Notes: generated by a model from the letters alone, not told the origin. Counted from the stretch's first letter, positions 24,522 through 43,034 are shown. The stretch is DNA of 64,000 nt from an uncultured Methylomirabilota bacterium (GCA_963845565.1 CAWJSJ010000002.1:704001-768000), one strand, 5' to 3'. Numbers and translations: made by a program.

Positions 24522-24580
24522 TTGACGGAACTGCAGACTTGTAACAGATTATGGGTGTTCCGGTCAGACCACCTTACCAT
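24522..24580 (+). promoter_or_regulatory. AT-rich promoter with a FadR-type operator
   Basis: TTGACG -35 after an A tract; GGTCAGACCACCTTACCA resembles FadR/PdhR/LldR GGT-N3-ACC boxes; upstream of a FadR gene. Confidence 0.5.
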
Positions 24581-24691: not shown

Positions 24692-25470
24692 GTGGAATCG
24701 GTGAGTCGCAGGGCGTTCCGGGTTGTTCGGAAGACGCGGGTCTCCGAAGAGATCGTCGGACAGGTTCGCGACCTCATCACGTCCGGCCGCCTGAAGGTCG
24801 GGGACCGGCTCCCCGCAGAGCGGGAACTTGCCACGGTCCTCGGGGTGGGCCGATCCACCGTCCGAGAGGCCATTCGGGCTCTGGAATCGCTCGGGATCCT
24901 CGAGGCCCGACCCGGCGAAGGCACCTTCCTGGTTTCCAACCCCGCCGACGCACAGCCCGACCCCATCACCGCCAACGCATTCAAGTCCTGGGAAAATCAG
25001 CGCAAGCTCTTCGAGGTCCGGATGGTCATCGAGCCGGACCTGGCGGCACTGGCCGCCCGCCGCGCCTCGTTTGAGCAGATCCTGAAGATGCGGGACGTCC
25101 TCCGGGAACAAGAAACATCCGTCCGGCAGGGAGAAACCGGCATCAAGGCCGACTCGACGTTCCATTTTCTCATGGCGGAGGCCGCCGGGAACGAGATCCT
25201 GCTCCGCATCATGGACAGCCTGATGGATCTCCTGCGGGAGACGCGCGAGACGAGCTTGCAGGCCAGCGGCCGCTCGATCCGTTCCCTGAAGCAGCACAAG
25301 GCGCTCCTGCGCGCCATCGAGACCCGGGATCCCGCCGCCGCGGAGCGCCACATGCGCGAGCACATCACCGAAATGGAAAAACTGGTCTTCTCGACCCAGG
25401 AGTGGCCGGTGGGATCGACCGTCGAATCCGCTCCGCCCCGCCACTTTCCAGGGTGGGAGAATCTGCGTGA
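24692..25470 (+). CDS. GntR/FadR-family transcriptional regulator (3' end inferred; probable 1-bp indel ~25430-25450)
   Basis: GDRLPAERELA..GVGRSTVREA HTH and FCD domain; TGA at 25468 overlaps the GTG of the next gene. Confidence 0.85.
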
Positions 25471-27587
25471 ACGAGGTGGCATCGGAAGAGCGAAAATTCA
25501 AGGTCGCCGAGGCGTTCCTCGAGGACGTCGGCAAGGGGTACGCCCGCATGGATGCGGACGACCTGATCAAGCTGCGCGCCGCCCCGGGGGACGTGCTCTT
25601 GATCACGGGGCGTCGCCCCACGGTGGCGCGGGCGGTCCAGGCGCCCCCGAGTCACTGCGGCCAGTATCTGATCATGATGGACGGGACCACGCGCAACAAC
25701 GCGCAGGCCGGCGTGGACGAGTTCGTCACCGTCAAGAAGGTCCCCTTCAAGGCGGCCAATTCGGTCCTGCTGTCGCCAGTCCAGGCGAATCAGAGCGCCC
25801 CCACCGAGGAGGAGATCCCGCACATCCGGCAGCTCTTGCTCGGGCTTCCCGTCATCATCGGGGACAGCCTCCAGATCACGTTCCTGGGGTCGCGACCTCG
25901 GTCGTTCACGGTCGACGGCTCGAATCCGCGCGGTGCGGTCCTTATCTCCAACGACACCGTGATCGCCTTCCGTCCGCCCGAGGTGTCGGCGGAAAAAGCC
26001 TACCGCATTTCCTACGAGGACATCGGCGGCCTGGATCGGGAGGTCTCGCTGGTCCGGGAGATGGTCGAGCTGCCCTTGAAGTTTCCCCAGCTTTTCGGCA
26101 TGCTCGGCATCGATCCGCCGAGGGGCGTCCTGCTCACCGGACCTCCCGGCACGGGCAAGACGCTCATCGCCCGGGCCGTCTCCCACGAGGTGCGGGCCCA
26201 CTTCATCCATATCAACGGGCCCGAGGTCATCCACAAGTTCTATGGTGAGAGCGAAGCCAAGTTACGCCAGGTCTTCGAAGAGGCCCAACGGAACGCCCCC
26301 AGCATCATCTTCCTGGACGAGATCGACGCCCTGGCGCCCAAGCGCTCCGTGGTGGTGGGGGACGTGGAGAAGCGGGTAGTGGCCCAGTTGCTCGCCCTCA
26401 TGGATGGCCTGGTGGAGCGGGGCGAGGTGATGGTGATCGGGGCCACCAACATGCCGGACCTGGTGGACCCGGCCCTCCGGCGCCCTGGTCGGTTCGATCG
26501 CGAGATCACCATCGGCGTCCCGGGGCGCGAGGGGCGACGGCACATCCTGGGCATCCACTCGCGCCGGATGCCGCTGGCGTCGGACGTGGACCTGGACCAG
26601 TTGGCGGACATCACCCATGGGTACGTCGGCGCCGATCTGGCCGTCCTCTGCAAGGAGGCCGGAATGGTGGCCCTGCGCCGGCTGCTGCCCCAGGTGCGGT
26701 TCGAAGTGGACGGCAAGCCCGAACTGGACAATGTCAAGGCCCGGATCGTCCTCGACGACTTCATGGCGGCCTTCAAGGTCGTCGCGCCCACCGCCACGCG
26801 GGAGTTCCTGGCCGAGCGGCCGCGGATGACCCTCAAGGATGTGGGCGGCCTTGCCGAGACCAAGCGCACCTTGCTCTCCATCGTGCAGCTTTTCCGCGGG
26901 GGCGGTGCCCTGGTCGGTCACACCCGGTTCAGCCCGCCGAAGGGGATCCTCCTCACCGGTCCATCGGGGACCGGCAAGACCATCCTGGCCCGGGCCTTGG
27001 CCGGGGAGATGGGGCTCACCCTGATAACAGTGGATCAGCCGAGCCTGCTTTCCAAGTGGGTCGGCGAGTCGGAGAAGGGGTTGCGCGAGGTCTTCAAGCG
27101 GGCAAAGCAGGCCTCGCCCTGTATCCTCTTCTTCGACGAGATCGAATCCCTGGTCCCGGTCCGGTCCGCCCTGGAGGCCGGCAGTCTCTTCTCCCGTCTG
27201 GTCAGCCAGCTTTTCCGGGAACTGGACGACCTGCACGGGTCGCTGGGCGTGGTCGTCCTGGGAGCCACCAATCGGCCCGACATGATGGAGCCCGCACTCC
27301 TGCGGGCGGGCCGCTTCGACTACGTCCTGGAGCTGCCGCTTCCGACGCGGGACGAGCGGCGGGAGATCCTGGCCATCCAGACCGAGGGCCTGCCCCTCAC
27401 CGATGACGTGAACCTGGCGGAACTGGCGGACGCCACGGGCGGATGGACCGGGGCGGATCTGGAGCTGGTCTGCAAGAAGGCGGCGATCCTGGCGCTGGAG
27501 GAGTATCGTAACCGGCCGTCCGAGACCTTCCGCCTGACCGCGCGGCATCTTGCGGACGCCCGGGCGCAGGTGAAAACCATGAAATAG
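25467..27587 (+). CDS. CDC48/VCP/VAT-family double AAA+ ATPase
   Basis: N-domain (DVGKGYARMD), SYEDIGGL, GPPGTGKT/FLDEID, ALRRPGRFDRE, GPSGTGKT/FFDEIE, KWVGESEK. Confidence 0.92.
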   Translation: MNEVASEERKFKVAEAFLEDVGKGYARMDADDLIKLRAAPGDVLLITGRRPTVARAVQAPPSHCGQYLIMMDGTTRNNAQAGVDEFVTVKKVPFKAANSVLLSPVQANQSAPTEEEIPHIRQLLLGLPVIIGDSLQITFLGSRPRSFTVDGSNPRGAVLISNDTVIAFRPPEVSAEKAYRISYEDIGGLDREVSLVREMVELPLKFPQLFGMLGIDPPRGVLLTGPPGTGKTLIARAVSHEVRAHFIHINGPEVIHKFYGESEAKLRQVFEEAQRNAPSIIFLDEIDALAPKRSVVVGDVEKRVVAQLLALMDGLVERGEVMVIGATNMPDLVDPALRRPGRFDREITIGVPGREGRRHILGIHSRRMPLASDVDLDQLADITHGYVGADLAVLCKEAGMVALRRLLPQVRFEVDGKPELDNVKARIVLDDFMAAFKVVAPTATREFLAERPRMTLKDVGGLAETKRTLLSIVQLFRGGGALVGHTRFSPPKGILLTGPSGTGKTILARALAGEMGLTLITVDQPSLLSKWVGESEKGLREVFKRAKQASPCILFFDEIESLVPVRSALEAGSLFSRLVSQLFRELDDLHGSLGVVVLGATNRPDMMEPALLRAGRFDYVLELPLPTRDERREILAIQTEGLPLTDDVNLAELADATGGWTGADLELVCKKAAILALEEYRNRPSETFRLTARHLADARAQVKTMK

Positions 27588-27689: not shown

Positions 27690-28295
27690 ATGGCAAGTAT
27701 CAAACAGATCACGGTATGGGCTCGAGGCGTCATTCAGGATAAGGAAGGACGCGATATCTCTAATGGCATCGCGGCGGCCGCAGGTTTCGAGGGCAAGTTT
27801 AACCAGTCGTTCGACAACTACGTGGATCTTCCGGATCGGGTGAACGTCCCCCTGCGGAAGTACGCGCGGATCAGCGACGAGGAGATCGAGGAGCGGTACG
27901 AGTACGAGAACCTGCATCCGGAAATCGTCATTCTGGCGGATGCCACCATCGCGAAGGGGATGAACGTCCTGCTCGGGATGCAAAAAGGCGGCACGCTGTT
28001 GGTCAACACCAACCGGGCGCCTGAAGACATCCTGAAGTTCATCCCGAACAAGGACCTGCTGAAGCAGATCGTCTGCGTGGACGCCAACGCCATCTGCGGC
28101 GTTCAGACGGTGGACTTCTCCGGCTCCGAGGGCGGCGTGGACATGCTGGGTATGGGCTCGGGCGTCGCGGCCCCCATCCTGGGCGCGCTCGTCAAAGCCA
28201 CCAGTGTGGTGAAGCTCGAGAGCCTTGCCAAGGTGGTCAAGAACAGCGAGGCCATGTACAAGGGGTACGATCAGGCGAAGGTGAAGACCCTGTAG
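27690..28295 (+). CDS. Oxalate oxidoreductase-like 2-oxoacid:ferredoxin oxidoreductase, gamma-domain subunit
   Basis: KQITVWARGV, NYVDLPDR, YARIS, SGSEGG; matches my recollection of the Moorella OOR gamma domain. Confidence 0.8.
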   Translation: MASIKQITVWARGVIQDKEGRDISNGIAAAAGFEGKFNQSFDNYVDLPDRVNVPLRKYARISDEEIEERYEYENLHPEIVILADATIAKGMNVLLGMQKGGTLLVNTNRAPEDILKFIPNKDLLKQIVCVDANAICGVQTVDFSGSEGGVDMLGMGSGVAAPILGALVKATSVVKLESLAKVVKNSEAMYKGYDQAKVKTL

Positions 28296-28327: not shown

Positions 28328-28660
28328 ATGCCGCATTTCAAGATCCCGAAGGAAAAAGAGGTGCCCCTCGGTTGTATCACGCCGGCGCCGGTTGGCGAGC
28401 AGCCCATGATGATCACGGGCAACTGGCGGATCTATCGGCCGGTGCTCGACCCCGAGAAGTGCAACCTGTGCATGAGCTGTATCATCTTCTGCCCGGACGC
28501 CTGCTGGCAGCTCAACGCGGAAGAGGACGAGCCGGTGTGGAACGCGAAGTATTGCAAGGGTTGCGCGATCTGTGTCAACGAGTGCACCTCTGGCGCACTG
28601 ACCAGGGCCTATGAGCTGGATTTCGAGGACGGCGTGGTCCGACTGGAAAAACCGTTCTAA
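28328..28660 (+). CDS. OOR-like delta (2x[4Fe-4S]) subunit
   Basis: TGNWRIYRP, CNLCMSCIIFCPD, YCKGCAICVNECTSGAL, ELDFED. Confidence 0.85.
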   Translation: MPHFKIPKEKEVPLGCITPAPVGEQPMMITGNWRIYRPVLDPEKCNLCMSCIIFCPDACWQLNAEEDEPVWNAKYCKGCAICVNECTSGALTRAYELDFEDGVVRLEKPF

Positions 28661-28673
28661 GGAGGGAGTTCCC

Positions 28674-30971
<2,298 letters not shown>

Positions 30972-31387: not shown

Positions 31388-32390
31388 ATGAACAGACAGT
31401 GGGGACCGACAGCGTGGCGGCGGATGCTGGTCATCGCTCTGGCTCTTGGGATCGCCGGGCTATGGAGCGGAACGGCGCGCCGCGGCCTGGGAGCCGACCA
31501 AGCCGGTGGAGTTCAACGTGCCGCCGGCACCGGGGGCGGGGCCGACATCATGGCCCGCTTCATTTCCCCGCTCTTCCAGAAGAACAAAATCACGGACAAG
31601 CCATTTATCGTGACCAACCGGTCGGGCGGTGCGGGAGCGGAGGGCTTCCTGCACGTGAAGGGCAAGGCGGGCGACGACCATACGATCGTCATCACCCTGG
31701 ACAACCTCTTCACGACGCCGCTAGCGACGGGCATACCCTTCAACTGGAAAGACCTCACCCCGATCAGCCGGCTGGCCCTCGACTACTTCGTCCTCTGGGT
31801 GAACGCCGAGAGCCCGTACAAGACGGCCAAGGAGTACTTCGACGCCGTCAAGAAGGAGCCCGGCAAGTTCAAGATGGCCGGGACCGGGACCAAGCAGGAG
31901 GACCAGATCGTCACCGTCCAGTTGGAGCAGGCGTTCGGCGTCGAAGTGGGCCTACGTGCCCTTCAAGGGCGGCGGCGAGGTGTGCGTGGAGTTGGTGGGC
32001 AAGCATGTGGATTCCACCGTGAACAACCCCTCCGAGTGCCGTGAGCCACTGGCGGGCGGGGAAGGTGCGCCCGCTGGCGGTGATCGACCACGAGCGAATC
32101 CCGTTGCCCATGTGGGATCAGATCCCGACCCTGAAAGAGGCCACGGGCATCGATATCAGCTACCTGATGTTGCGCGGCATCTTCGCGGCGCCCAAGATCA
32201 AGAAGGAAGTCCAGGACGGGTACGTCGCACTCTTCAAGAAGGTGACGAAACCGAGGACTACAAGAAGTACCTGAAGGACAACGCCCTCAAGGGCGCCTTC
32301 CAGTCCGGCCCAGAGTTCGTGAACTGGGTCGAGGAGCAGGACACGCTCCACAAGACGTTGATGGAAAAAGGCGGAATGATGAAGCAGTAA
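31388..32390 (+). CDS. tctC: Tripartite tricarboxylate transporter substrate-binding protein TctC (several frameshifts)
   Basis: WEPTKPVEFNV/AGTGGGADIMAR, NRSGGAG, PFKGGGE, PTLKE across frames. Confidence 0.8.
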
Positions 32391-32520
32391 GCTTCTGTGC
32401 AGATAGGGCGTGACCGGCTTCGGATAGCGACCGAGCGGGGCCACGCGAACCGTGCAGCGTCTCCGGGGGGCGATGCGTCTCCCCGGAGACGCACGCTGTT
32501 GTGCTGAACGAGGAGAAGCC

Positions 32521-33002
32521 ATGACCTATAAGATGGCCGATCTCATGATCGCGGGCATCCTCTTATGACTTGGCGTCCTTGTCGTCGCGGATTCGTTTCG
32601 ACTCGGAAGCGGTTGGGGGATGGAAGGGCCCAAAGCCGGGTTCTTCCCGTTTTTCATGGCCGCGATCGCTGTGGTCGGTTGCGTGGTGGTCGTCGGCAGG
32701 CCATGAAAGGGACGTCCTCCGTGAAGGGCAACAAACCGTTCGTGCCTTCCGGCGGAATGAAGCCGGTCCTCACGGTGTTCGTCCCGGCCTGTGGGATGAT
32801 CCTTGCTGACCGAGGTCGTCGGATTGTATGTCGCGGCGATGATCTATCTCGCGGGCTACATCAGGATCGTCGGCGAATACCGCTGGAGGACCGTGCTGCT
32901 CGTCAGCATCCCCATTCCCCTGATCTTCTACTGGGTGTTCGAGAAGATCTTCCTCATTCCGATGCCTGCGGGGATGTTCGGGCGCAGATCCTTCGATTCT
33001 GA
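32521..33002 (+). CDS. tctB: TTT small permease TctB (frameshifted)
   Basis: GPKAGFFPF, four hydrophobic segments, VFEKIFLIPMPAG. Confidence 0.7.
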
Positions 33003-33023
33003 GCGGAAAGGAGTCATCCAGCC

Positions 33024-34551
33024 ATGGACATCCTTACCAACCTGACGTTCGGGCTCAAGGTCGCCGGCGAGCCCTATAATCTCATGGTCGCCGCCGCCGG
33101 GCTCATCCTCGGCGTCATCGTCGGCGTCCTGCCGGGGCTCGGCGGGGCCAACGGCTGCGCCATCCTGATCCCCGTGACCTTCGTCATGCCTCCGGTGGCG
33201 GCCGTGATCCTGCTCTCCTGCCTCTACTGGGGGTCGCTCTACGGAGGCTGCCATCTGCTCGATCCTCTTCAACATTCCCGGCGAGCCGTGGGCGGTGGCC
33301 ACCACCTTCGACGGCTATCCCATGGCCAAGAAGGGCCAGGCCGGACTGGCGCTCAGTGCCGCGTTCTTCGCGCATTTTGTGCGGCGCCGTTCTTGGCACG
33401 ATCGCTCTTGACGTTCTTCGCGCCCGTGCTGGCCGCCTTTGCCCTGCGCTTCGGCCCGCCGGAGGTCTTCGCGGTCATGCTCCTCACCTTCAGCGCCTTC
33501 GTCGGTCTGGTGGGAAAGTCGCCCATCAAGACGCTGGTCGCGACCGCCTTCGGATTCATCATGGCCTCGGTGGGCATCGACATCGTCAGCGGCGAGCTGC
33601 GCCTGACCTTCGGGTCCTGACGGCCCTGATGGGCGGCTTCAGCTTCATCGTCGCGGTCATCGGCCTCTTCGGCATCGGCGAGATCTTCCAGACCGTCGAG
33701 GAGGGCCTCAAGATCGAGGGGGTCAAGGCTACCGGATGCAATGGGAGCGACATCATCGACACCTTCAGAGACATGGCGACGGTACCGGAAGAACCTGCTC
33801 CTGAGCTCCATCGTCGGCTGCTGGATGGGCTTCAAGCCCGGCGGCGCCACGCCGGCCTCGTTCATGGCCTATGGCTTCGCCAAGGGGGCGCCGGAAAAGA
33901 AGAGGACGAGTACGGCAAGGGCCACGTTGCGGGCATCCTCTCGCCCGAGGTCGGCGGCGCACGGCGCCGGCACCTCGGCCATGCTTCCCATGATCACGCT
34001 GGGCATTCCCGGGGTCTCCCACGGCGGCGGTCATCATCGGCGGCCTGATGATCTGGGGCCTCCAGCCGGGCCCGATGCTCTTCAAGGACAACCCGGATTT
34101 CGTCTGGGGAATGATCGCCAGCACCTGGTACGCGAATATCCTCGGCCTGCGTCGTCGTCGTCGCGTTCGCGCCCGCTGTTCGCGTCGGTCCTCCGGATTC
34201 CGTTCGCGATCCTGATGCCCCTCCTGATCTTCATCTGCGCCATCGGCGCCTATGCGGTCAACAACCGGATGATCGACATCTGGTACATGATGCTCTTCGG
34301 GATCATCGGCTATTTCGTTCAAGAAGCTGAACTACACCATGGCCCCCATGCTGCTGGCGCTGGTGCTGGGCGACATGGCGGAATCGGCGCTGCGGCAAGG
34401 CCTGATCATGTCCCAGGGGTCGCTCTTGATCTTCCTCCGCCCGCCGATTACGCTGCCGCTGCGTCATCGGGGCAGCCGTGATCGGATTCTGGCCGCTGAT
34501 CCAGGCCACTAAGGCGTCGCCCCGACGGAACGGCAGGAGTGCCGCGGCTGA
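33024..34551 (+). CDS. tctA: TTT large permease TctA (many frameshifts; end approximate)
   Basis: GVLPGLG, ILFNIPGE, TTFDGYPMAKKG, FGPPE, PMITLGIPG, GLQPGP fragments. Confidence 0.8.
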
Positions 34552-35888: not shown

Positions 35889-36839
35889 ATGCGCATTCTG
35901 GTGACCGGCGGGAACGGGAGTGTGGGGCAGGGGTTGATCCCGCATCTGCTCGACCGCGGACACCACGTCGTGGTGCTGGATACCGAGCTGGGGGCGGTAC
36001 GAGCGATCGCCCACCCCCAGTTCGCCGTGGTGTCCGGCGGTGTCGAAGACGCGGCCGCGGTGGCCGCGGCAACGCGCGGGGTCGAGGCGATCATCCATCT
36101 CGCCTGGTCGTTCTCGGACGATCCCCTTCACCTCTTGGAGCATGACCTACGGGGCCACGCGTTGCTCCTGGGGGCGGTGCGCGACCAGGGGGTGCGCCAC
36201 TTCATCTACACCAGCACCGCGGTCGTGTACGGGAAACCGGTCCGCACCCCGATTGACGAGGAGCATCCGCTCCGGGTGCTGGACGCCCGCAAGCCCACCT
36301 ACGGGATAGCCAAAGAGTTCGCTGAGAAGTTGACAATCCTCGCCGCGCGGGATACGGCGCTCTCCGCCACGATCCTGCGATTTTGGTGGGCCTTCGGGGA
36401 CGAGATCGGCGGCAGACATCTGCGCGACATGCTCAAGACGGCGGCCTCCGGACAGCCCGTCCGGGTGCCGGCCGATTGCGGCGGAAGCTTTCTCAGCCAG
36501 GAAGATTTCAACCAGGCGGTCGAGACGATTCTCTTCATGCCCGCGACCGGCGGGCGCGTCTTCAACCTCGCCAGTGCCTACGTGACCTGGGAAGAGGTCG
36601 CCCGCATGGTCGTGAAGGTCACCGGAGGAAAGAGCGCGGTCGAAGTGGTGCCGCGCGAGGCCTGGACCGGCGCCGCCTTCTTGGCGGACCGGTGGGAGCT
36701 GACCGATCAACGGATACGGACAGCCGTAGGTTTCAAGCCAAGCCACGATACCGCCGAAGTCCGGGAGGCCCTCGGTCGGGCCATCGCCGGTACCTGGGAA
36801 CGACTTCGTTCTCGGGATGCCGCCTCCCGGACCAGGTGA
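35889..36839 (+). CDS. NAD-dependent epimerase/dehydratase
   Basis: VTGGNGSVG, HLA, SSTAVVYG-like, YGIAK. Confidence 0.88.
   Translation: MRILVTGGNGSVGQGLIPHLLDRGHHVVVLDTELGAVRAIAHPQFAVVSGGVEDAAAVAAATRGVEAIIHLAWSFSDDPLHLLEHDLRGHALLLGAVRDQGVRHFIYTSTAVVYGKPVRTPIDEEHPLRVLDARKPTYGIAKEFAEKLTILAARDTALSATILRFWWAFGDEIGGRHLRDMLKTAASGQPVRVPADCGGSFLSQEDFNQAVETILFMPATGGRVFNLASAYVTWEEVARMVVKVTGGKSAVEVVPREAWTGAAFLADRWELTDQRIRTAVGFKPSHDTAEVREALGRAIAGTWERLRSRDAASRTR

Positions 36840-39461: not shown

Positions 39462-43034
<3,573 letters not shown>

Follow-up and report, generated by a model that had tools for sequence, protein, structure and literature searches.

Archaeal Cdc48, represented by VAT of Thermoplasma acidophilum (PDB 5g4f, 5vc7), combines an N domain with two AAA+ rings, D1 and D2, both of which carry aromatic pore loops, and VAT is described as a processive unfoldase (PMC5476697, in part). 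An aromatic D1 pore-loop residue is given as a feature of archaeal Cdc48 that is absent from eukaryotic Cdc48 (PMC5511170, in part). Bacterial Cdc48s outside the Actinobacteria have been described as sporadic archaeal imports that fall in the archaeal branch; actinobacterial Cpa, likewise a Cdc48-like ATPase in an operon of metabolic genes and without an HbYX tail, forms a cluster of its own, binds the 20S proteasome and is set apart by that description (PMC6017811, in part). Further CDC48 ATPases are annotated in gas-vesicle clusters of Methylocella and Methylosinus plasmids.

A known case of an AAA+ motor that serves a metabolic enzyme is that of the Rubisco activases, which besides Rca include CbbX and CbbQO. 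Rca is a motor that frees an inhibited enzyme (bioRxiv 2020.05.16.099382, in part). The enzyme at issue here, oxalate oxidoreductase (OOR), works without CoA (PMC5020499, PMC12337175, both in part), carries a plug loop in its active site and has a YPIRP motif reported as unique to it (PMC5020499, in part).

The cdc48 gene and its operon

The window is a stretch of 64,000 nucleotides from an uncultured Methylomirabilota bacterium (GCA_963845565.1, CAWJSJ010000002.1:704001-768000). Its plus strand encodes, at 25467..27587 and with a GTG start, a Cdc48/VAT-type double-ring AAA+ ATPase of 706 amino acids, the only full-length Cdc48 in this genome. Pfam places CDC48_N at residues 10-92 (PF02359), CDC48_2 at 115-171 (PF02933; 24.2 bits, cut-off 22.4) and then two AAA domains (PF00004), the type II AAA+ layout, in which a double-psi barrel and second subdomain precede two AAA domains. 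Walker A and B, sensor 1, arginine fingers and pore loops are complete in both rings (GPPGTGKT, IIFLDEID, KFYG and ALRRPGRFD in D1; GPSGTGKT, ILFFDEIE, KWVG and ALLRAGRFD in D2). Domain searches and motif inspection thereby bear out the description in an earlier note on this DNA of a full N-D1-D2 Cdc48 with intact Walker motifs and aromatic pore loops. That note had also called the protein ‘archaeal/eukaryotic-type’; the archaeal half of the label stands and the eukaryotic half does not, because the D1 pore loop contains an aromatic residue missing in eukaryotic Cdc48. The nearest solved structure in sequence is VAT (5g4f, E 4.6e-185), with p97 ranking below it. The predicted structure (mean pLDDT 81, pTM 0.46) has p97 as its fold match. 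Against TIGR01243 the protein scores 763.1 bits (curated cut-off 802.65) over model positions 2-676 of 733, leaving the last 57 positions unmatched, and a related protein of the same clade (L139) reaches 834.4 bits, above the cut-off. The C-terminus, VKTMK, is shorter than that of VAT and lacks the HbYX tail for 20S docking, as the earlier note had it; the gene also differs from that for VAT in its setting within a substrate-specific bacterial operon.

Directly upstream, at 24692..25470 (plus strand), lies a FadR/GntR-FCD repressor gene (Pfam GntR and FCD) whose stop had been proposed to overlap the cdc48 start. As assembled, the fadR frame has no stop there and continues to 26248; the overlapping TGA, at 25468-25470, belongs to a different frame, so that for fadR to end there a one-base indel in its variable tail is required. 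The proposed overlap thus fails in the sequence as it stands and holds in the relatives checked, where fadR ends with a 4-nt overlap on the cdc48 start in six of six. A candidate operator, GGTCAGACCA, likely of the FadR family by motif match, is found at 24562..24571 on the plus strand; the window has 3 matches of this type where 1.1 would be expected, which is weak alone. Of 60 listed loci, 21, from both main gene orders, have a GGT-N3-ACC match in the 330 nt that precede the first gene of the operon (a raw count). A scan for a sigma-70 promoter found none.

The four genes 3′ of cdc48, all on the plus strand, score best as OOR subunits, in agreement with the earlier placement of cdc48 directly before OOR genes. 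They encode a gamma-type subunit (27690..28295; N-terminal part of NCBIfam OxalOxreddelta, 245.7 bits, cut-off 230), a ferredoxin (delta) subunit (28328..28660; an OOR subunit is its best score), an alpha subunit with YPIRP (28674..29872) and the TPP-binding beta subunit (29952..30971; OxalOxredbeta, 582.8 bits, cut-off 590; E 2.4e-154 against PDB 5c4i_C). The alpha gene is frameshifted in the assembly near 28880-28960, which splits its OxalOxred score into 108 and 405 bits (cut-off 500); this is likely an assembly error, because the extra bases at 28883 and 28957 are absent from contigs of three public runs. In three parts of the window (25400-25466, 28880-28960 and 31388-34481) genes that are otherwise conserved are interrupted by several single-base indels, which are likely to be long-read assembly errors. 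Across 114 OOR loci the alpha motif is YPIRP in 92, FPIRP in 21 and absent in 1, and R31, R109 and D116, the residues of the OOR criterion (PMC5020499, in part), are invariant in 48 Cdc48-linked alpha subunits.

The OOR genes are followed at 31388..34481 (plus strand) by tripartite tricarboxylate transporter (TTT) genes, tctC, tctB-like and tctA (Pfam TctC and TctA), which contain several frameshifts and likely serve oxalate uptake; in other OOR loci this slot holds an oxalate/formate antiporter or an LctP-type permease. Contigs from RNA libraries extend over the operon and join cdc48 to the gamma gene. We discarded them as evidence of transcription, since a control stretch is covered too and such contigs cannot show transcription. 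A gene of the NAD-dependent epimerase/dehydratase family (35889-36839) lies farther downstream, as it often does 3′ of the oor operon across phyla, and a single-chain pyruvate:ferredoxin oxidoreductase gene (39462-43034), 8.5 kb downstream of oor, is also present in loci L001 and L002.

Linkage of cdc48 to OOR genes

We surveyed the gene neighbourhoods of OOR in a locus set chosen by OOR itself (the best 80 of 475 beta loci), counting a Cdc48 match within 10 kb. Eighteen of the 80 were too short; among the 62 that could be judged (at least 5.5 kb of upstream sequence, or a match), 56 have Cdc48, and six lack it despite at least 5.5 kb of upstream sequence. Record titles of the 80 loci name Methylomirabilota, Pseudomonadota, Myxococcales, Syntrophales and other deltaproteobacteria, Nitrospirota and Bacillota, those nearest to the window being labelled Methylomirabilota. 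The order is cdc48-fadR-oor in 34 loci, fadR-cdc48-oor in 11 and cdc48-oor in 8; cdc48 lies downstream of a second oxidoreductase in three, once on the opposite strand, and oor-fadR-cdc48 is found in loci L227 and L232. The survey that the earlier note had called for therefore found linkage to YPIRP/FPIRP-type OOR across several phyla and at least four gene orders, with motors intact even where identity falls to about 45-50%.

Genome samples gave the same picture; we attach no p-value to them because kin are not independent. In the window's own phylum (201 genomes, including the unpublished G047, G029 and G152, which enter the denominator only), 13 genomes have an OOR-type beta (72% or more) and cdc48 is adjacent in all 13, with three more close Cdc48s on contigs that end in or before oor genes. 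Where only a generic PorB-like match was present, a Cdc48 could be assigned to that enzyme in none of 125 genomes, among the matches listed. The class of G208 (151 genomes) includes 13 OOR genomes, each with cdc48 adjacent, 137 genomes with neither gene and one further genome with a gas-vesicle copy. Across the phylum of G208 (301 genomes), 26 have a beta subunit (19 over the cut-off) and 25 of these have Cdc48, adjacent in 24; the pair is split by contig ends in G394, G377 is without Cdc48, and all six Cdc48-only genomes hold gas-vesicle loci. In the phylum of G653 (251 genomes) adjacency is found in five of five, and the 24 Cdc48-only genomes comprise 12 with gas-vesicle-type neighbours, 10 with copies outside the clade and 2 with clade members cut by contig ends. 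Two apparent exceptions, G054 and G141, were dismissed, their OOR operons being cut by contig ends.

The earlier note had mentioned an AAA ATPase beside the oor genes of Moorella. This proved right: in G420, where the beta subunit is identical to PDB 5c4i_C over 309 residues, gntR-cdc48 lies directly upstream of oor. We take 5c4i, whose alpha subunit has YPIRP, to be the OOR of Moorella thermoacetica, which fits PMC5020499. The window differs from this locus in that gamma and delta, fused in Moorella-like loci, are separate genes and in that a TTT transporter follows.

OOR is the sole constant neighbour of these cdc48 genes. Transporters vary (TTT, OxlT-type, LctP-type), as do regulators (FadR, other GntR, LysR, two-component), and the epimerase-family gene is near oor in 34 of 69 well-flanked loci. 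Tree distances correlate at 0.44 between Cdc48 and beta, 0.81 between alpha and beta and 0.64 between FadR and beta, and 40 of 47 supported splits are compatible. We rejected this mirror-tree signal as a sign of co-evolution, Cdc48 doing no better than the repressor control; the agreement of the trees shows co-inheritance, not contact.

Several loci depart in detail from the usual arrangement. Two metagenome loci have an RraA-like/aldolase gene separating cdc48 from oor (L210:10180-10884 and L223:10395-10871). Sporomusa acidovorans (L076, L077) carries oor twice, in blocks some 20 kb from each other, and the copy without cdc48 starts inside the last 15 cdc48 codons (L076:7617-7661). In five betaproteobacterial loci (L008, L012, L014, L023, L067) the genes after OOR encode a second, fused 2-oxoacid oxidoreductase and an NfnAB-like pair, and the regulator is a CbbR-like LysR.

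OOR also occurs without Cdc48. In the myxococcal family of G203 (34 genomes) we found no Cdc48 match in four of five OOR genomes and none in the 29 OOR-less genomes, and the OOR genomes G201, G205 and G206 likewise gave no match; the completeness of these genomes is uncertain. In loci L012, L020 and L024 the usual cdc48 positions are sequenced and hold no remnant. OORs from Cdc48-less genomes keep conserved residues at the normal rate and deviate no more than linked ones (a comparison that left out the L012 alpha, which is frameshifted, and the L024 beta), and inspection by eye revealed no recognition tail exclusive to Cdc48-linked OORs. In G207 and G209 cdc48 is detached from OOR and lies near frc/oxc (L110) and fdh/fhs (L109). 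With four of five myxococcal OOR genomes lacking a match and their OOR intact, Cdc48 is probably not an obligatory maturase, and the suggestion in the earlier note of a maturation factor is disfavoured in that strict form.

The Cdc48 clade and its other branches

The OOR-linked Cdc48s form one clade (FastTree support 100, 188 rows; IQ-TREE 100/100, 50 rows; partial, frameshifted and duplicate rows were removed beforehand), adjoining the gas-vesicle Cdc48s, which may be paraphyletic in these trees. Every D1 catalytic position is invariant in the 118 OOR-clade rows and the D1 pore aromatic is present in all; the D2 Walker B Glu is kept in 113 and the D2 pore aromatic in 116. Mean identity is 42% in N, 70% in D1 and 52% in D2, and no clade-specific conserved column was found among these rows in the N domain, the least conserved part.

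The gas-vesicle Cdc48s, the nearest branch at about 47-55% identity, are likewise embedded in operons and without HbYX; they differ in their neighbours (gvp and Hsp20 genes) and stand apart from the OOR clade. HbYX is absent from all 118 OOR-clade rows and from all 41 gas-vesicle rows, for which reason we no longer read its loss as marking specialisation. Among the remaining bacterial Cdc48s sampled, most sit in gas-vesicle clusters, together with genes of Hsp20 type and ArsA-like genes (L081-L094, L125, L130, L158-L166, L254-L264); copies were labelled ‘gvp’ by hand where neighbours were of gvp/Hsp20 type, and L159 received the label without a called neighbour.

Nineteen clade rows lie away from OOR: 12 are amidase-type, 4 precede an LptC-like gene, 1 is in an FAD-oxidoreductase operon and 2 are on short contigs. 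A metagenome scan, seeded with one row of a non-OOR sub-branch and hence enriched for it, returned 80 loci, of which 30 are OOR, 17 gas-vesicle-type, 16 amidase-type (with amiE itself in 12), 5 with a regulator only and 12 without a recognised neighbour. The amidase-type loci (L088:7036-12250, L169, L174-L189, L195, L196, L198) combine cdc48, in at least two gene orders, with an amide/urea ABC transporter or AmiS, an aliphatic amidase, a GcvH-like gene and two genes that match no Pfam family, one of about 90-170 aa starting with CxxC and one of 209 aa. Their conserved neighbours led us to drop a reading of L088 as a methylamine-pathway Cdc48. Ten of 12 amidase-branch Cdc48s have lost the first D2 arginine finger. 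The branch is nested inside the OOR clade in the free tree (88/83, 90/85), with a sister position not rejected (AU p 0.144). The word ‘dedicated’, which the earlier note had applied to the tie with OOR, accordingly suits most of the clade and does not suit this sub-branch beside aliphatic amidase or other genes.

A matching operon context is that of AmiB, a Clp-type protein; the likeness drawn here is one of context. AmiB is the ATPase kept in the amidase operon (amiE/amiS) of Pseudomonas aeruginosa, where it is hypothesised to be a chaperone (PMC12591593, in part). Most sampled Cdc48 copies fall into three recurring operon types (gas vesicles, OOR and amidase), which makes their neighbours candidate clients. 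A broader reading, in which this bacterial branch would consist of single-client metabolic repair motors, with an OOR activase acting against pyruvate inactivation and an offshoot re-aimed at aliphatic amidase, is less likely than not.

Possible roles of Cdc48 beside OOR

OOR is said, in the title of Pierce 2017, to be subject to ‘suicide inactivation by pyruvate’. Pyruvate would leave hydroxyethyl-TPP stranded in the enzyme. We propose, at a probability of roughly 45%, that Cdc48 is an optional ATP-driven repair motor for pyruvate-jammed OOR. Under the FadR-type repressor, cdc48 would be induced together with OOR; the Cdc48 hexamer would recognise OOR through its N domain, grip a terminus or loop and thread it through the aromatic pore loops; and the pull would open the plugged site, letting the dead TPP adduct leave or be exchanged, with the client released rather than destroyed. 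Repair is the best fit because the motor has stayed intact next to a single enzyme despite rearrangements, yet is dispensable in some lineages. The likeness to Rubisco activases is in the proposed job; those are single-ring AAA+ proteins of other families whereas Cdc48 has two rings, and their inhibitor is a non-covalent sugar-phosphate rather than the presumed covalent TPP adduct of OOR.

Assistance at an earlier stage, with Cdc48 aiding OOR folding, assembly or the uptake of TPP and Fe-S clusters and having no role on the finished enzyme, is in our view unlikely. The position of cdc48 as first or second gene of most operons would suit it, as would the Hsp20-type genes that accompany the neighbouring gas-vesicle branch and the echo of AmiB in the amidase sub-branch, but the OORs of Cdc48-less genomes depart from conserved columns to no greater extent than linked ones, so repair fits better than obligatory assembly, and the generic PorB-like enzyme has no assignable Cdc48 in any of the 125 own-phylum genomes, among the matches listed. 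By analogy with VAT, processive unfolding would suit destruction of OOR as well as its repair, and both rings have aromatic pore loops, as in VAT. A dedicated disposal route, in which dead OOR is fully unfolded and passed to a protease with TPP and iron recycled, nonetheless strikes us as quite unlikely: the recurring neighbours of cdc48-OOR loci include no protease gene, HbYX is missing throughout the clade, and four of five carrier genomes tested, which retain this Cdc48, have one proteasome-family match of about 175-195 aa-type size, apparently HslV, and no 20S alpha/beta pair. The window's own genome does have such a pair, and Cpa binds the 20S proteasome without HbYX (PMC6017811, in part), which, together with its absence from gas-vesicle Cdc48s, deprives the missing tail of diagnostic value.

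The client might instead be another product of oxalate metabolism (transporter, repressor or epimerase-family neighbour) or proteins damaged by growth on oxalate. Members of the clade serve other operons, and the detached copies near frc/oxc and fdh/fhs are in genomes with OOR elsewhere; we hold this very unlikely, given that OOR alone is constant while transporter and regulator families vary and the epimerase-family gene is found in only about half of the loci. Least probable of all is that Cdc48 is a general chaperone that travels as part of a mobile cassette and is functionally unconnected. Its losses and a tree congruence no better than the repressor's are what such a passenger would show, but it is kept with intact motors through at least four rearrangements, and close relatives are rare without OOR (0 of 29 OOR-less myxococcal genomes; 137 of 151 genomes in the class of G208 with neither gene).

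The Cdc48 family is known; its partnership with OOR is undescribed. The Moorella oor cluster as drawn in Pierce 2010 reportedly includes an AAA ATPase gene, so that the adjacency in one species, but not the function, is probably already in print. In the literature that our searches covered, no paper connected OOR with Cdc48 or an AAA ATPase; the primary reports on OOR (Pierce 2010, Pierce 2017, Gibson 2015) may mention the gene. OOR is a crystallised, CoA-independent enzyme reportedly killed by pyruvate, a metabolite that its hosts must make, and the gene next door makes its continued working in cells directly testable. If this Cdc48 is a repair motor for a TPP enzyme, it would carry the activase concept beyond Rubisco and might be relevant to the use of OOR in CO2/oxalate interconversion.

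The 20S alpha/beta pair of the window's genome is part of a locus at G000:C4:139186-146366 that comprises a small, Pup-like gene ending in GGE, an ATPase ending in GHYL, the beta and alpha genes and two ligase-like genes; judging from these inferred gene names, it is of the Pup-proteasome type.
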